Under the pieces are notes generated by a model. It did no database searches. It was not told the DNA's origin and saw only the letters and a program-made list of their open reading frames with translations. From Burkholderiales bacterium (GTDB lineage: Bacteria; Pseudomonadota; Gammaproteobacteria; Burkholderiales; SG8-39): a stretch of DNA of 64,000 nt. The stretch is taken from NCBI GenBank assembly GCA_036394595.1, contig DASWEU010000201.1:395-64394 (forward strand). The letters run 5' to 3'. A program made the translations under genes and the position numbers. Shown one piece after another: positions 17,663 through 22,763 of this stretch; position 1 is the first letter of the stretch, and each line of letters opens with the position of its first letter.

Positions 17663-18714
17663 CCTTCGTCCTCAAACCCAAGCTGCACCACCCGACCCTG
17701 CCGAAGAACAAGCTCGGCTTCACGCGCCGCGACTACGAGGGCAAGGTCTCCACGCTCTGCGCCGGCTGCGGTCACGACTCCATCTCCGCGGCGCTGATCC
17801 AGGCCTTCTGGGAGCTCGACACCCAGCCGCACCGCGTCGCCAAGATGTCCGGCATCGGCTGCAGCTCGAAGACGCCCGACTACTTCCTCGGCAACTCGCA
17901 CGGCTTCAACACCGTGCACGGCCGCATGCCCTCGGTGCTGACCGGCGCCAACCTCGCCAACCGCGACCTCATCTACCTGGGCGTCTCCGGCGACGGCGAC
18001 TCCGCATCGATTGGGTTGGGACAATTCGCGCACGTGATGCGCCGCGGCGTGAACATGACCTACATCCTGGAGAACAACGGCGTCTACGGCCTCACCAAGG
18101 GCCAGTTCTCCGCCACCGCCGACAAGGGCTCGAAAGCCAAGAAGGGCGCCACCAACAAGGACGAGGCGATCGATACCGTCAGCCTCGCGCTGCTGATGGG
18201 CGCCACCTTCGTCGCGCGCAGCTTCTCCGGCGACAAGCACCAGCTCGTGCCCCTCGTGAAGGCCGCCATCGCCCACCCCGGCGCCGCCTTCATCGACGTC
18301 ATCAGCCCCTGCGTCGCCTTCAATAACCACGCCGGCAGCACCAAGAGCTACGACTACGTCCGCGAGCACAACGAGGCCGTCAATCGCCTCGACTTCTGGC
18401 CCAGCCGCGACACCATCACCGTCGACTACTCCGCCGGCGGCGTCATCGAAGTCCCCGGCGCCGACGGCAGCATCCTGAAGCTACGCAAGCTCCACGCCGA
18501 CTACGATCCCAGCGACAAGATCAACGCCCAGTCGATGATCTCCAGCGCCGGCGCCAAGGGCGAAGTCCTCACCGGACTCCTCTACCTCTCGTCCGACGCC
18601 GAAGACCTCCACGCCCACCTCAACACCTACGCTGCGCCGTTCAACAGGCTCGGTGAGAAGGACCTTTGTCCAGGGGCGGGAATGCTGGAAAAGATTAACG
18701 CCGGACTTCGATAG
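17659..18714 (+). CDS. korB: 2-oxoglutarate/2-oxoacid:ferredoxin oxidoreductase beta (TPP-binding) subunit
   Basis: CAGCGHDSI Cys motif and TPP-binding GDGDSASIG...NNGVYGLTKGQ. ATG at 17659 inside a longer spurious track ORF. Confidence 0.85.
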   Translation: MTFVLKPKLHHPTLPKNKLGFTRRDYEGKVSTLCAGCGHDSISAALIQAFWELDTQPHRVAKMSGIGCSSKTPDYFLGNSHGFNTVHGRMPSVLTGANLANRDLIYLGVSGDGDSASIGLGQFAHVMRRGVNMTYILENNGVYGLTKGQFSATADKGSKAKKGATNKDEAIDTVSLALLMGATFVARSFSGDKHQLVPLVKAAIAHPGAAFIDVISPCVAFNNHAGSTKSYDYVREHNEAVNRLDFWPSRDTITVDYSAGGVIEVPGADGSILKLRKLHADYDPSDKINAQSMISSAGAKGEVLTGLLYLSSDAEDLHAHLNTYAAPFNRLGEKDLCPGAGMLEKINAGLR

Positions 18715-18748
18715 CTCTAGTACGTCAGCCCCGTAACCTTCGTGTCAG

Positions 18749-19282
18749 TTGCTCCTATTCGAGGAGGGGCGAGATTTGACTCTCAGATTGAAGGAGCCGG
18801 CAAACGTACTCTTTAGGATCAAGCGGGGGTTAGCTGGATACGTTAGTTACCTCGCTGCGTGCGAGATGAACCCTATCTTTACGGAATACCTGCTTTACGA
18901 GCCTATCTTAAGAATACTTGCGGGTAGAGAGTACTTAGTTGAATGCGAGTACGAATGTCCGGGAATTGAACAACCGAAGAAAGGCGACAAGAAGAGAATT
19001 GACTTTGTGGCGAGGAAGGGCGATGTGCACTTTGCACTTGAGGTCAAGTGGGCGAAGGCGAAGCGTGTAATTGTTTCGCGTGATCTAAAGAAATTGCAGG
19101 CGTTTCAGAACGAATTTCCTGAGGCGAAATCATTTTTGTGCATTTTCGGAAGGAAACGTCACATTGAGAACCTCCGTCACCTAGACGAAGATTTTTGGGA
19201 ACGAGGGGAAATGGTAACTGCCGATTTCAAGAAAACGCGCTTTAGCTGCCGGGTATTCCAAATGAGGAGTTGGCTGGACTGA
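18749..19282 (+). CDS. Small PD-(D/E)xK nuclease-fold protein (restriction-endonuclease-like), hypothetical
   Basis: Core motif RIDFVARKGDVHFALEVKWAK (D ... E-x-K) preceded by a helix with conserved Glu (TEYLLYEPIL). The track start is a TTG at 18749. A TTG at 18776 has a better RBS (GAGGAGG at 18761-18767). Confidence 0.6.
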   Translation: MLLFEEGRDLTLRLKEPANVLFRIKRGLAGYVSYLAACEMNPIFTEYLLYEPILRILAGREYLVECEYECPGIEQPKKGDKKRIDFVARKGDVHFALEVKWAKAKRVIVSRDLKKLQAFQNEFPEAKSFLCIFGRKRHIENLRHLDEDFWERGEMVTADFKKTRFSCRVFQMRSWLD

Positions 19283-19492
19283 CCTCGAACGGCAATGCTG
19301 GCGAATATCAAGGCTCGGCTTTGGTACGCTACAGACGCGTTGCTCTCTCCCCCAAGTAGCGATTTAAGCCGCGGGATTAGGACATAGGGATAATTCCGGG
19401 TTGTGCTTCGTTATCCGTCTGCTGGACCGACGCTCCATGTAGGACTAGTCTCCACGCGGGGATTTTGCGTGGACGCCGAATAGTCGAGAGCA

Positions 19493-20494
19493 ATGGGGAT
19501 CTCAGTCATGCCAATCAAACCGCTTCGGGCAAGTGGCCTAACGTTCCATCGGTACCAGCGAGGGGTCAATCAGACCGATGATCAGAAAAAGCTACTAGTT
19601 TCATTGCTTGGTCTGGTCGGCGAGCTTGGCGATGTCCAAACGATATTCAAGCGTCGACTTGAAATTGGCCTTTACCCAAACTTTGATCTCGATATGGCCG
19701 AGGAGATCGGCGACACATTGTGGTATTTGACTAGTCTCGCGTCCCGAGTTGGACTGCGTATGGAGGACATAGCAGCAGAGAATATTTCAAAGGCGGCGCA
19801 ACTTCATTCGTTGGGCGACATCTATCAGTTCGACAAGGGATATGCGAAAGATGAACAACTGCCTCGTCAATTCGATGTTGTGTTCGAAGAAAAGCCACTG
19901 CGCAAAAGCATTCAGGTCAAGATTGTTGTCCGGGGCGTATTTGTTGGAGATGCACTGACCGACAACTCAATAAAGGATGACGGGTACCGGTATCACGACG
20001 CCTTTCACCTCGCATACGCGGCATGCCTGGGGTGGTCACCGGTCACCCGTTCTCTACTTAGGCGCAAGCGAAAAAGCGATCGGAGAATTGACGAAGTAGA
20101 GGACGGCGCTCGAGCTACGACCGTAGAAGAGGCTATTTCGATTTTCCTCTTCAATCAATCTCAAAAACGTAATGAGTATCGAGAGCTAAATGCAATCGAC
20201 ATAAGTTTGCTAAAGACAGTGCGGTCACTATGCGGCACCCTCGAGGTGCGACGTTGCACAGCCAAGCAATGGAGAGCGGCAATCTTTAGTGGATATCAAA
20301 TATTTCGTGCACTTCGAGACAACAAAGGTGGAATCGTTTCCTTGGATCTCAATAGAGCGTCAATAAGCTACTCGCCACTTCGACCGAGAAGCGTCAAGGG
20401 GAGGAATCATGCCGGACGTTCAGGCTCCAGACTGCCTAATCGCATGGCAAGAAGGCGCGCGAAAACTTCAAAAAGGTGGCGGCGAAGTCTTTAA
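19493..20494 (+). CDS. MazG-like all-alpha NTP pyrophosphohydrolase domain protein with an uncharacterised C-terminal half
   Basis: N-terminal LLGLVGELGDV ... EEIGDTLWYLTSLA matches the MazG/dimeric-dUTPase E-x2-E / E-x2-D metal-binding helices. The C-terminal approx. 200 aa (…DDGYRYHDAFHLAYAACLGW…) has no motif I can assign. The basic tail overlaps the next gene by 86 nt. Confidence 0.65.
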   Translation: MGISVMPIKPLRASGLTFHRYQRGVNQTDDQKKLLVSLLGLVGELGDVQTIFKRRLEIGLYPNFDLDMAEEIGDTLWYLTSLASRVGLRMEDIAAENISKAAQLHSLGDIYQFDKGYAKDEQLPRQFDVVFEEKPLRKSIQVKIVVRGVFVGDALTDNSIKDDGYRYHDAFHLAYAACLGWSPVTRSLLRRKRKSDRRIDEVEDGARATTVEEAISIFLFNQSQKRNEYRELNAIDISLLKTVRSLCGTLEVRRCTAKQWRAAIFSGYQIFRALRDNKGGIVSLDLNRASISYSPLRPRSVKGRNHAGRSGSRLPNRMARRRAKTSKRWRRSL

Positions 20495-21107
20495 TTTGAT
20501 AACTACAATTGATGTTCCCACCAGCTATCAATTGGGATGGCTGTCGACGTTTTCGCCTCACGCAGTTGTAGCTGGAAGTGATCGATTATTGGATGTCATT
20601 AACACCGTCTTTCCAGTTCGGCTTTCAAAGAAGAGTGCTTCTAGACCAGTTCTCTACGACTCATATGATCGTCTACATAAGCGTGCAATGAAATTGCCAC
20701 GCAATCGGTCGCGTTGGGGCACTTATTTCTCCCGCCTCACAGCGTACGGAGGCAAAACTAATCAACTGGAGACTGTAATCCAGAAGCTCAAAAAGTGGCC
20801 CCGCTATACGGCAGCCTTGGTATTTCACCTTTCTTGTCCGCTCTTGGACAAGCCGAGAACAAGAGGAGGGCCGTGCTGGCATTACGGTGAATTGATTTGG
20901 CGAAAAGGAGACGTACTAGATCTAGTAGTCGTTTACCGCAATCACGATTTCTTCAACAAAGCGCTCGGCAATTTCATCGCATTAGGACAACTTCTTAATT
21001 TCATCGCATCTGCTAGTGGAAAAAAGTCCGGCAAATTAATCTGCCATTCAGTTCACGCATATTCTCAGCAATCAATCAAACACCTAGTGGCGCTTGCGCA
21101 AATATAG
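20409..21107 (+). CDS. Divergent thymidylate-synthase-fold protein (TS / dNMP hydroxymethylase superfamily), 232 aa
   Basis: Collinear with the E. coli ThyA core:
- NQLETVIQKLKKWP vs IDQITTVLNQLKNDP;
- GGPCWHYGELIW vs LAPCHAFFQFYV (catalytic Cys);
- LDLVVVYRNHDFFNKALGNFIALGQLLNFIA vs [31 protein letters not shown];
- HSVHAYS vs GDTHLYS.
Strong RBS GGGGAGGA 4 nt before the ATG. Confidence 0.65.
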   Translation: MPDVQAPDCLIAWQEGARKLQKGGGEVFNLITTIDVPTSYQLGWLSTFSPHAVVAGSDRLLDVINTVFPVRLSKKSASRPVLYDSYDRLHKRAMKLPRNRSRWGTYFSRLTAYGGKTNQLETVIQKLKKWPRYTAALVFHLSCPLLDKPRTRGGPCWHYGELIWRKGDVLDLVVVYRNHDFFNKALGNFIALGQLLNFIASASGKKSGKLICHSVHAYSQQSIKHLVALAQI

Positions 21108-21116
21108 AGAGTTGAA

Positions 21117-22244
21117 TTGAATCCAGAAGCTGAAAAGACAAAAGCATTCGAGCAATTGGTCATTGAAGTTACCGCCTGTCGAAAATGTCCGCGAATGAAT
21201 TCGAGCGAAAGGATCTTTGGACATTCCTGTGGCGGACTAAACGCCTCGGTGATGTTTATTGGAGAAGCTCCAGGGCGACTTGGTGCTGACAACACGTTGA
21301 TACCCTTCCATGGAGATCAGTCCGGCCATAACTTTGAAAGCTTCCTATTGCAGGTCGGAATAAACAGATATGAAAGCTTTGTAACGAACGCAGTACTGTG
21401 CAATCCGAAGGACGAAAAAGGGAACAATGCCACTCCAACACTTGATGAAGTTCGAAACTGCAGTCCGTTTCTCCATAGACAACTCGATCTAGTCAAGCCC
21501 AAAGTTGTTGTTACCTTGGGCGCAATAGCGCTAAGGGCTGCGGCAAATGTTGAACCACACGGCCTAACTATCGCAAAGCACGTGCGAACGCTGAGGACCT
21601 GGTACGGGGCAAAGCTCATTCCTTTGTATCACCCTGGGCAGCGCGCGATGATGCACAGAAGCTTTTCGAATCAGCTTTCTGACTATCAGTCTGTTTCCGA
21701 AGCTATTCGAAATAGAAGCCCAAAAAAGACGCGCTTGGGCAGATATTCACCAAAGGTTGCTGCAATAGTTGAGTTGATACTTGCGCAGAAGCCAAGGATT
21801 AGCTATTTCGGTCTTCACAAACTCTATTACCTAATAGAACTAGAAGCCCGTAAAAGAATCGGTATGCGACTCACAAATAGCTACATTGTTAGACAGAAGG
21901 ATGGCCCATATTGCGTTGATCTTCACCTAGCAAAATTGAAACTAATGATTCCGAAATTGAACGTCGAGGCGCGCAGTAACAAAATTGCCTTGCGCGTTAC
22001 TGAGGCAAGCGATCTTTTTTTGGAATTGCAACCAAAACAGGCCATGCTAAATGAGGCTGAGAAGGATGTAGTTGTTGCAGTGGTCGCTCGTTATGGAACT
22101 TTGACGGACGCGGAGCTAAAGAGGCGCAGTTATTTGACCAGAGAGATGCGGAATATTCTCCGATCAGAGAAGCAAGCTAGAACAAATATGTTTAATGTCC
22201 CTCTGCTCTTACCAACCAGGGAGGAGCTCGCCCGTGACACCTGA
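21117..22244 (+). CDS. Family-4-type (Fe-S) uracil-DNA glycosylase superfamily domain fused to a C-terminal DUF4065/Panacea (SocA/GepA-like) domain
   Basis: UDG: CRKC...C(NP)...C(SPF) four-Cys pattern, motif A FIGEAPG, motif B LYHPGQRAM. C-terminal half: HKLYYLIELEARKRIGMRLTNSYIVRQKDGPYCVDL resembles the KLxKLLYxxQ...G...GPV pattern of DUF4065. Apparent TTG start. Confidence 0.65.
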   Translation: MNPEAEKTKAFEQLVIEVTACRKCPRMNSSERIFGHSCGGLNASVMFIGEAPGRLGADNTLIPFHGDQSGHNFESFLLQVGINRYESFVTNAVLCNPKDEKGNNATPTLDEVRNCSPFLHRQLDLVKPKVVVTLGAIALRAAANVEPHGLTIAKHVRTLRTWYGAKLIPLYHPGQRAMMHRSFSNQLSDYQSVSEAIRNRSPKKTRLGRYSPKVAAIVELILAQKPRISYFGLHKLYYLIELEARKRIGMRLTNSYIVRQKDGPYCVDLHLAKLKLMIPKLNVEARSNKIALRVTEASDLFLELQPKQAMLNEAEKDVVVAVVARYGTLTDAELKRRSYLTREMRNILRSEKQARTNMFNVPLLLPTREELARDT

Positions 22245-22740
22245 ACAGCAGTCTTTGACCAGCAATGACGAAGTAATTACAGCGCTACGCGATCATGCGT
22301 GGGACTACTTTGAATTGCACGCGGAGCAGCGCCTTAAAGCATTCCATTTCTACATTTTGCTGGAAACGGGTCTCGTCGCAGGTTTGCTTCTTGCGACTCG
22401 TGCCGGTTCACCGGACATTAGGATGATCACAGTCATTGGCTTATTAATGGCTTTCTTCTCAATTATTTTCTGGAAAATAGATTTCCGAACAAAAGGCATG
22501 ATCAAGATTTCGGAGGAGGCACTAAAGCTTTATGAGAAGCGAAAATTTGGAAACCAAAATGATGACGATTTAATTCATTCAACTCCCTTCTTGAATGACC
22601 CCCAAGTTAGAGGGCTTGTTGGCCGCTCTCCATTCGGTACGCTGTCTTACTCCAAATGCTTTGGAGCTGTATTCGCCGTCTTTGCGCTCCTCGGTCTCGT
22701 GATGTCAATCGGTGGAGCTGTAAATTTGCTTTGCCATTGA
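22234..22740 (+). CDS. Three-TM membrane protein (candidate effector/toxin), hypothetical
   Basis: Hydrophobic segments FHFYILLETGLVAGLLLAT, MITVIGLLMAFFSIIFW and FGAVFAVFALLGLVMSIGGAV. The GTG at 22234 is preceded by GGGAGGAG and overlaps the upstream stop by 11 nt. The alternative ATG at 22195 lacks an RBS. Confidence 0.55.
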   Translation: MTPEQQSLTSNDEVITALRDHAWDYFELHAEQRLKAFHFYILLETGLVAGLLLATRAGSPDIRMITVIGLLMAFFSIIFWKIDFRTKGMIKISEEALKLYEKRKFGNQNDDDLIHSTPFLNDPQVRGLVGRSPFGTLSYSKCFGAVFAVFALLGLVMSIGGAVNLLCH

Positions 22741-22763
22741 AACGCGTACGCAGTTAAGTCCTG

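Follow-up and report, generated by a model that had tools for sequence, protein, structure and literature searches.

Why does a short stretch of foreign base composition lie among ordinary metabolic genes in a Burkholderiales genome, and do the genes that it carries belong together? The window analysed here comprises 64,000 nucleotides (nt) of contig DASWEU010000201.1, and the stretch in question, positions 18715-22763, is an island filled by five open reading frames (ORFs) on the same (+) strand, which we call g1 to g5. Its GC content is 47.9%, against 65.3% for the whole window, and it holds the sole 1-kb stretch below 55% GC in the 64 kb. In 400-nt sliding windows, GC lies at 0.43-0.53 within the island and at 0.63-0.69 beyond it. 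GC content at third codon positions is 0.45-0.56 for the island genes (n=5), compared with 0.92-0.94 for the upstream oxidoreductase genes and 0.84 for the downstream gene. The abrupt drop described in a first-pass annotation of this DNA is thus borne out; in the range of 30-53% GC given there, the lower bound of 30% is too low at 400 nt. The same annotation proposed that all five genes form one undescribed conflict system centred on pyrimidine nucleotides and uracil in DNA, and as a speculation it sketched pool sensing or perturbation, base excision, cleavage at abasic sites, and abortive infection through the membrane protein. We find that the island looks horizontally acquired and is best explained as a conserved, autonomous three-gene operon (g2-g3-g4) with a translationally coupled fourth gene, g5, next to an unrelated gene, g1. 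The operon joins a MazG-MazG_C protein, a short enzyme of the thymidylate synthase (TS) fold, and an iron-sulfur (Fe-S) uracil-DNA glycosylase (UDG) fused to a Panacea domain. We give about an even chance to the reading that it is a conflict system, most likely anti-phage, which links a private pathway for pyrimidine deoxynucleotides with a DNA glycosylase.

The evidence for a three-gene unit comes from searching 185,579 species, each represented by one genome, with a profile built on the TS-like protein g3. The search yielded 34 loci, a lower bound set by the pattern search. In all 34, g2, g3, and both halves of g4 are contiguous and in identical order; 31 loci are complete, and three run off the end of a contig. 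Beta-, Alpha-, and Gammaproteobacteria are represented, along with one cyanobacterium, Bacteroidota, and one verrucomicrobium. Gene calls made independently for Paucimonas, Variovorax, and Polaromonas return the same three genes, mostly with 4-nt overlaps, and the core measures about 2.8 kb. The MazG and UDG domains and the TS-like protein all retain intact catalytic motifs. As g2-g3-g4 are syntenic in 34/34 loci, and g1 and g5 in none, the functional unit is a three-gene operon rather than the five-gene cassette first proposed; g5 belongs to a sub-clade only, and g1 has no relatives at these loci.

The same comparison bears on the possibility that the island is a chance accretion of five unrelated passengers in one low-GC insertion. 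At the edges of the island there is some ground for it: a g1 homolog adjoins the operon nowhere else, 210 nt separate g1 from g2, nucleotide homology to the closest related locus (L007) spans only 19535-21934, and g5-type genes also follow unrelated genes in other contigs. For g2-g3-g4, however, accretion is refuted by the synteny, by overlapping reading frames, and by a second architecture, described below, that keeps the families together. It is partly refuted for g5 as well, whose pairing with the UDG-Panacea gene recurs in four contigs. Random accretion, which the first-pass annotation had named among the findings that would undo its proposal, may apply to g1 but not to the core, and as an account of the whole island we hold it to be very improbable.

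The five fold and domain assignments made from the sequence at first sight hold when checked with profiles and Foldseek, with uneven support (g1 and g5 score below cut-off). In g2, the MazG_C match is strong (PF18722, E 1.1e-71, 240.7 bits against a cut-off of 29.7, profile positions 3-188 of 190) and lies C-terminal to MazG. The Pfam match to MazG itself is weak and below cut-off (E 3.6e-3, 18 versus 22 bits); PF03819 is recorded for many close homologs of g2, and the acidic motifs GELGD and EEIGD (E44, D47, E70, D74) are invariant in 18 homologs. An AlphaFold2 model of g2 (mean predicted local distance difference test score, pLDDT, 78) has a four-helix N-domain. Foldseek matches this domain to DCTPP1, RS21-C6, and several MazG/YpjD proteins, Bacillus included, at target-normalised template-modelling (TM) scores of 0.63-0.74, compared with about 0.4-0.5 for the dUTPase-like DR2231. 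Judged on the predicted structure, the MazG domain is closest to dCTP/dUTP pyrophosphatases. The 50 PDB hits listed all match the N-domain, leaving the MazG_C half without a structural counterpart among them. In the DefensePredictor paper (PMC13092281), MazG-C is termed a predicted nucleotide kinase, with credit to Burroughs et al., NAR 2015. The public annotation of g2 starts at 19508 and gives a product of 328 amino acids (aa).

Over 86 nt, g2 and g3 share DNA in two reading frames, and this overlap encodes the C-terminal 38 residues of g2, a disordered tail rich in Arg and Lys (pLDDT <50). A similar tail with a common LP.R[MV]A.R pattern is seen in roughly half of the homologs aligned, the others being without it, and the Paucimonas locus has the identical 86-nt overlap. 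Because the tail pattern recurs and the Paucimonas overlap is the same, two reading frames appear to be selected over 20378-20494. In six more distant loci, a separate MazG-only gene, with 30-42% identity to the g2 N-domain, lies just 5' of the MazG-MazG_C gene, implying that the pyrophosphatase domain has been duplicated in part of the family.

The second protein, g3, is recognisable as a TS-fold enzyme mainly by structure. Its best sequence match is the short archaeal TS model TIGR03283 (E 1.4e-12), at 47.6 bits against a cut-off of 174.55, and Pfam TS (PF00303) is likewise below cut-off (E 1e-3, 18.8 versus 24.3 bits). The AlphaFold2 model (pLDDT 84.7, predicted TM score 0.85) has the TS fold, and Foldseek returns 396 PDB matches at E<=1e-3. 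The 50 of these that were listed are led throughout by TS-fold enzymes, with TM scores of 0.52-0.68. Leading among them, with E values from 1e-9 to 1e-12, are a short phage enzyme, the flavin-dependent dCMP 5-hydroxylase AfhB (9iqu/9iqc), classical TS, and MilA; gp42/TS homologs match among viral models. Identity to real thymidylate synthases is only about 15%. A profile of 17 g3 homologs found no chain at E<=10 among PDB sequences, and a global hhalign of the g3 profile to Escherichia coli ThyA gave no alignment.

Three motifs of g3 are invariant, GGPCWH, YRNHD(x7)N, and HSVHAY (G153-G154-P155-C156-W157, R177, D180, N188, H216, Y218). The catalytic Cys that the first-pass annotation saw as retained corresponds to C156 of the first of them, the predicted nucleophile. 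A weak local alignment (residues 118-211, E 0.038) relates the motifs to ThyA C146, R166, D169, N177, H207, and Y209, with the Cys segment and the His/Tyr pair placed by eye. In the TS family, N177D marks dCMP enzymes and D169N marks flavin hydroxylases (PMC13326640). With Asn at the 177 equivalent and Asp at the 169 equivalent, g3 has neither signature. On these residues, the Asn points to a uracil rather than a cytosine nucleotide, and the Asp argues against the flavin hydroxylase type. The predicted activity of g3 is at C5 of a uracil-type deoxynucleotide.

The third protein, g4, has an N-terminal domain that scores above cut-off for Pfam UDG (E 3.8e-26, 92.3 versus 24.3 bits) and matches Arch_udg at E 9e-28. 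Solved family-4 UDGs from Thermotoga maritima (TM0511), Sulfolobus tokodaii, and Thermus thermophilus match at E about 1e-18, and the domain aligns full-length with TM0511. The hallmarks of the family are kept in at least 94% of 36 homologs: four Fe-S-type cysteines (C21, C24, C95, C115), motif A (G49-E50-A51-P52-G53) with D58 and P63-F64, the uracil-recognising N91, and motif B (H172-P173-G174, HPG). As the domain nonetheless falls below the cut-offs of the curated equivalog models (TIGR00758, 89.6 versus 125.3 bits; NF040953, 97 versus 250), it represents a divergent family-4-like lineage. We predict from these residues that it is a uracil-DNA glycosylase of the family-4, Fe-S type. Assignment to UdgX was considered and rejected. 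UdgX crosslinks to DNA through the His of its KRRIH loop; in g4 a KRRIH-like motif is not present, and TIGR03914 covers residues 5-144 only, at 78.3 versus 189.95 bits. One locus (L030, 10715-11774) has its UDG-Panacea gene broken into two reading frames at ~10957/10959, which may reflect a frameshift, a pseudogene, or misassembly of the metagenome-assembled genome.

The families also occur together in a different arrangement. With tblastn, distant TS-like homologs (25-30% identity) were found on 20 plasmids, mostly conjugative. In this second architecture, genes for an XRE-type helix-turn-helix (HTH) protein, an ImmA/IrrE metallopeptidase, and a C1-family (papain-like) peptidase precede the TS-like gene in one operon. 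Beside it stand a MazG-MazG_C gene (~40% identity to g2), a divergent UDG-superfamily gene, and a dCTP-deaminase-like (DCD-like) gene; the full gene set was inspected in three loci (L046, L047, L043). The plasmid variant is without the Panacea domain and lies next to partition genes. As its UDG-superfamily protein is a different one, the association with a glycosylase has evidently been kept through non-orthologous replacement. No other observation argues as strongly for a functional link as this persistence of three activities together, despite rearrangement and a change of glycosylase lineage. The DCD-like gene of the second architecture is homologous to a gene that lies 17 nt after the UDG-Panacea gene in Fibrella, and DCD-like genes are present in L038, L046, and L047, that is, in both architectures, which strengthens the deoxyuridine theme of the operon. 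The coordinates of all these features are collected in Table 1.

Table 1. Positions of the island, its genes, and related genes in other loci (island features are numbered in the window, other features are given by locus)
Feature	Position	Strand	Remarks
Low-GC island	18715..22763	.	between the 2-oxoacid:acceptor oxidoreductase beta-subunit gene and the next host gene
g1, probable PD-(D/E)xK (Hjc-like) nuclease	18749..19282	+	177 aa; sub-threshold Hjc matches and motif
g1-g2 spacer	19283..19492	+	210 nt; presumed promoter and 5' region of the core operon, from position
g2, MazG-MazG_C	19493..20494	+	333 aa; MazG domain ~19544-19807, MazG_C 19820-20377, tail 20378-20491
g3, short TS-fold enzyme	20409..21107	+	232 aa; predicted nucleophile Cys156 (20874-20876); profile, model, Foldseek
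g4, UDG-Panacea fusion	21117..22244	+	375 aa; UDG domain ~21150-21680; Panacea (DUF4065/SocA-like) ~21813-22133
g5, membrane protein of 8xMP type	22234..22740	+	168 aa, three hydrophobic segments; 181 aa if ATG at 22195
MazG-only genes	L027 8776-9072; L028 477-716; L029 4174-4437; L030 8823-9080; L032 5482-5739; L033 5303-5731		
Second architecture	L046 203003-208759; L047; L043		L046, Sulfitobacter plasmid NZ_CP136685.1; L047, Rhizobium plasmid NZ_CP007047.1; L043, metagenomic contig

The first-pass idea that the chemistries converge on uracil-type pyrimidines is therefore upheld by the Asn of g3, the family-4 hallmarks of the UDG domain, the placement of MazG nearest to dCTP/dUTP pyrophosphatases, and the recurrent DCD-like gene. 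Dcd, dUTPase, TS, a kinase, and UDG make up the canonical dCTP-to-dTTP route plus uracil excision. The predicted activities mirror that route (dCTP -> dUTP -> dUMP -> dTMP -> dTDP, plus Ung) once the DCD-like gene is included, so an accessory DNA-hygiene or nucleotide module has to be considered, in which a spare dUTPase-like enzyme, TS, kinase, and UDG lower DNA uracil or supply dTTP under stress, with no role in conflict. Such a module would suit a UDG domain closest to true uracil-excising family-4 enzymes and a neighbourhood in which many flanking genes are housekeeping, but it accords poorly with the foreign composition of the island and with a distribution as sporadic as 34 loci in 185,579 species genomes, even as a lower bound. 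While the best sequence match of g3 is to a short archaeal TS, the protein shares only about 15% identity with real thymidylate synthases and has no Pfam-level match. The antitoxin-type fusion, the variable nuclease and membrane-protein add-ons, the integrase neighbours, and the XRE/ImmA plasmid variant all speak for a mobile conflict element instead. We assign a small probability to the hygiene module; if the operon were merely a spare set for thymidylate synthesis and uracil repair, it would be a modest curiosity of accessory metabolism.

A viral source was also looked for. Searches by tblastn with g2 and g3 gave no match in 50,697 phage genomes, and no relatives of either were found in 2.9 million IMG/VR viral contigs, on which grounds we reject both an ordinary prophage nucleotide module, the alternative that the first-pass annotation had itself raised, and a phage origin. 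A phage pathway offers a close parallel in logic. The T4-type pathway, with gp56 dCTPase/dUTPase, the TS homolog gp42 (dCMP hydroxymethylase), and gp1 dNMP (deoxynucleoside monophosphate) kinase, has the same order of chemistry as that proposed for the operon, including C5 modification by a TS-fold enzyme that uses a Cys nucleophile, and the related 5-hydroxy-dCMP pathway (PMC13326640; PDB 9iqu/9iqc) supplies the best structural matches of g3. There are differences as well. The T4-type pathway is viral, whereas the present operon is cellular or plasmid-borne; its kinase is of the gp1 P-loop type, whereas the candidate in the operon is MazG_C; the operon adds a DNA glycosylase; and g3, unlike the dCMP enzymes and the flavin hydroxylases, keeps the Asn177 and Asp169 equivalents.

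From the parallel with the T4 hydroxymethyl-dCTP route, we infer four steps. The MazG domain would convert a pyrimidine deoxynucleoside triphosphate (dNTP) of the dUTP, dCTP, or dTTP class to the dNMP, and g3 would then modify C5 of a uracil-type dNMP, attaching a one-carbon or other group. MazG_C, if the kinase predicted in the literature, would re-phosphorylate the product, which host NDP kinase could return to the dNTP pool. Last, the Fe-S UDG domain would act on DNA that carries, or lacks, the corresponding base, leaving abasic sites; these would stall replication and could be cut by apurinic/apyrimidinic endonucleases or by neighbouring nucleases such as g1. Two versions of the conflict reading can be drawn from these steps. 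The pathway might yield a non-canonical 5-substituted dUTP, a poison for replicating DNA that also flags it for excision. Alternatively, an inhibitor-proof dUTPase/TS/kinase/UDG set might restore thymine, excise uracil or 5-hydroxymethyluracil, and so restrict thymine-replacing phages. A sharper form of the first version, a "make, then excise" immunity in which a 5-substituted dUTP made by the host on infection enters replicating phage DNA and is excised by the operon's own Fe-S glycosylase, turning replication into destruction of the DNA, strikes us as rather doubtful. Were a poison base indeed made, the Panacea domain would gate the system and, in the sub-clade of the window, a membrane effector.

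The same enzyme logic (dNTPase, TS homolog, dNMP kinase) is that of phage hypermodification (PMC13326640), and together with the closeness of the g3 fold to phage C5-modifying enzymes it invites a different explanation, self-DNA modification. The operon would then build a modified pyrimidine dNTP into the cell's own or plasmid DNA as an epigenetic or anti-restriction mark, with the glycosylase removing unmodified or misplaced bases, and the plasmid-borne variant could shield plasmid DNA during transfer. A glycosylase with all uracil-recognition residues, however, fits poorly with a genome of 5-substituted uracil. In the loci inspected, the operon has no linked gene for a DNA polymerase of its own, a transferase, or any further hypermodification enzyme, and it is missing from phages, the usual home of such pathways. 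The chance of self-modification is, in our estimate, slim.

How the conflict system might be held in check is suggested by the C-terminal half of g4. Its Panacea match is above cut-off (PF13274, E 1.2e-6, 29.8 versus 25.7 bits, profile positions 1-107 of 113), and the motifs of the domain are conserved in 36 g4 homologs. The toxins neutralised by PanA antitoxins vary widely and include membrane disruptors and a nucleotide-cyclase-like toxin (Kurata et al., PNAS 2022, PMC8832971), and three of nine validated PanT toxins are membrane disruptors (PMC8832971). The g4-g5 pair resembles PanA-PanT in gene order, a gene for a small membrane protein coming after a Panacea/DUF4065 domain. It differs in that the Panacea domain is the C-terminal half of an enzyme, stands within a three-enzyme operon, and is kept in 34 loci without a g5-type gene. 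By analogy, the Panacea domain probably holds a toxic partner in check, here g5; elsewhere the partner may be one of the enzymes.

If g5 starts at the GTG that comes after a ribosome-binding site, GGGAGGAG, it overlaps g4 by 10 nt, and this start agrees with the 168-aa called product P0390. Hydropathy analysis gives three hydrophobic segments. The match to PF24838 (8xMP) is E 3e-6, at 27.5 versus 30 bits for the 181-aa ORF, and the family is recorded for 17 of 19 g5 homologs, the 168-aa form of g5 included. A g5 homolog stands directly after the UDG-Panacea gene in four of the eight contexts examined, the window counted; in the three further contigs, the homologs have 56-72% identity to g5 and lie directly 3' of that gene. 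A g5-type gene is absent from all 34 genome loci that keep Panacea. We conclude that g5 is an accessory of a sub-clade, the closest relatives of the window.

More distant 8xMP genes trail other, unrelated partners. In two metagenome contigs (L041, 1182-5489, and L042), the gene comes after that for a 649-aa HTH_31 protein, with a DUF4357 protein and a Dam-type (MethyltransfD12) methyltransferase upstream, and in L049 another such gene stands between split integrase fragments and a Gp49/HTH (HigB/HigA-like) pair. Based on these three contexts, 8xMP looks like a mobile terminal module on varied upstream partners. A literature search for the 8xMP family gave no relevant paper.

If phage defence were secondary, the whole could be a toxin-antitoxin (TA) or addiction module, the enzymes and/or the membrane protein being toxic, the g4 Panacea domain neutralising them by binding, and the main effect being to stabilise the mobile DNA that bears the cassette. 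The Panacea match and its conserved motifs, the range of toxins that PanA antitoxins neutralise, and the recurrent, overlapping g4-g5 pair are all in keeping with this, as are the PaaA2 and HipA genes near some loci. The plasmid data cut both ways, since the distant variant lies on conjugative plasmids beside partition genes but is without the Panacea domain. Moreover, three intact enzymes conserved across phyla far exceed the needs of a TA pair, and the 34 loci have no g5-like gene to neutralise. TA and defence functions can also coexist. We therefore think it unlikely that the element is a TA module first.

How the conflict system would relate to described systems was assessed with PADLOC-DB v2.0.0, which dates from 2023 and predates Brig1. 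It found no system on the island, only weak PD-(D/E)xK matches for g1, a spurious JetC match for g2, and nothing for g3-g5, and in this the first-pass annotation, which recognised no named defence system, was right. Its word "undescribed" stands as far as PADLOC is concerned but goes too far otherwise: MazG_C is a Pfam family, and a related system has been predicted. That system, MazG/MazG-C/NMAD/UDG, is among the predicted, unvalidated ones of DefensePredictor (DeWeirdt, Mahoney and Laub, Science 2026, PMC13092281, Fig. 6F, S12B). That paper credits a 2015 comparative-genomics study with predicting several such domains as defensive. Both the predicted system and the window have MazG fused to MazG-C and a UDG-superfamily gene, and the former is sometimes found in defence islands. 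It differs in having NMAD (Nmad2, PF18753 elsewhere in the paper), for which no protein of the window gives a Pfam match at E<=1, and its figure legend names neither a TS-like protein nor a Panacea domain; the papers searched mention neither of these in that setting.

A TS is found in DS-4, a validated system of TS, dNMP kinase, 5-hydroxymethyldeoxyuridine DNA kinase, TIR, and Nmad2, which shows that a TS homolog can be essential to defence (PMC13092281). The DS-4 TS is long and of classical type (361 aa, HHpred probability 100), whereas g3 has 232 aa and is divergent, with no Pfam-level match. Among glycosylases, Brig1 is a UDG-superfamily enzyme that serves as a stand-alone anti-phage effector, excising phage-specific modified bases (Hossain et al., Nature 2024, PMC11078745). 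Its closest structural relative is the S. tokodaii family-4 UDG, also among the best matches of g4. Compared by description, Brig1 acts alone, with no partners from nucleotide metabolism, whereas g4 stands within a multi-enzyme operon and keeps the Fe-S cysteines, GEAPG, and HPG of true uracil glycosylases. Neither PMC11078745 nor bioRxiv 10.1101/2025.10.29.685425, both on anti-phage glycosylases, mentions MazG or thymidylate synthase, and Panacea is not mentioned in the latter, the sole glycosylase paper searched for it. The dCTP deaminase and dGTPase defences likewise act on deoxynucleotide metabolism, and a DCD-like gene joins the operon in three loci; families and architecture differ. The operon is thus within known kinds, nucleotide-centred defence and defence glycosylases. 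The triad, its two architectures, and its accessory genes have, as far as can be told, not been characterised previously.

The operon lies in variable regions. By raw count, ~13 of the 34 loci carry a gene of nuclease, defence, or TA type next to the core, and integrases lie near the core in four loci. The neighbour families are Mrr_cat, SduA_C, HNH_2, DUF4917, HEPN, DCD-like, MBL (metallo-beta-lactamase fold), PaaA2, and IrrE-HTH. Several points weigh against the conflict reading. Many operon neighbours are housekeeping genes, and the window itself is no defence island, metabolic genes flanking the low-GC stretch, for which PADLOC has no meaningful match. The operon family is known from sequence and predicted structure alone. 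The correspondence of g3 to ThyA combines a weak profile alignment (E 0.038) with motif reading. MazG_C has no visible P-loop in the homolog alignment and no listed PDB match, so the kinase step draws solely on the published prediction. Finally, 34 loci retain the Panacea domain although they lack g5.

If the operon is defensive, it would connect manipulation of the deoxynucleotide pool with glycosylase attack on the base composition of DNA, immune strategies hitherto studied separately, and it would give first functions to MazG_C and to a divergent bacterial TS-fold family. If host-made poison bases are involved, there would be a new immune principle, a new MazG_C activity, and a new product of a bacterial TS-fold enzyme. 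The operon bears on the arms race over thymine- and cytosine-replacing phage DNA modifications, and an enzyme that produces a novel modified dNTP, or a glycosylase whose specificity is new, would, if found, be a useful tool. A core of ~2.8 kb that ranges from Burkholderiales to Bacteroidota, and whose natural variants differ in the presence of the membrane protein and of a nuclease and include the plasmid XRE/ImmA/C1 form, is compact enough for genetics and biochemistry.

The locus of Polaromonas sp. CF318 (L014/L005, 12625-14134) has the most defence-island-like context seen in any of the loci. Genes for a Shedu-type SduA_C nuclease and a DTW-domain protein, and a HipA/HTH TA pair, come after the core there.

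The genes 5' of the island encode the alpha and beta subunits of a 2-oxoacid:acceptor oxidoreductase. The "korB" of the first-pass annotation is accordingly a metabolic enzyme, the beta subunit, and not a plasmid partition protein; the "Bug" name given to the downstream gene is unconfirmed, as the gene has no NCBIfam match at E<=1e-5. No integrase, tRNA gene, or significant flanking repeat was detected for 18715-22763. A 37-nt imperfect direct repeat (70% identity) of the 3' end of the beta-subunit gene, at 18677-18713 and 19290-19326, the latter just past g1, was considered as an insertion scar or a relic of the oxidoreductase C-terminus. As its local protein alignment scores 23-24, no better than shuffled sequence (22.3 +/- 3.6, 300 shuffles), we take the repeat to be chance. 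A promoter and terminator scan of the island gave fewer sites than in shuffled sequence and is hence uninformative, and the spacer before g2 has no consensus promoter and no sigma-70-like site.

At the 5' edge of the island, g1 resembles Holliday-junction-resolvase-type (Hjc) nucleases at scores that are all below cut-off (Pfam E 1.3e-3, 19.1 versus 21.1 bits; NCBIfam E 1.1e-4, 22 versus 70), and its PADLOC matches are to PD-DExK models at E about 1e-3. No g1 homologs occur in the 34 related loci or on the plasmids, and the idea that it is a conserved component was dropped for that reason. Its motif RIDFVA...ALEVKW is in register with the catalytic segment of Hjc 1GEF (PDB E 0.5), with D..ExK present. 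We conclude that g1 is an accessory gene peculiar to the present locus, outside the conserved operon.

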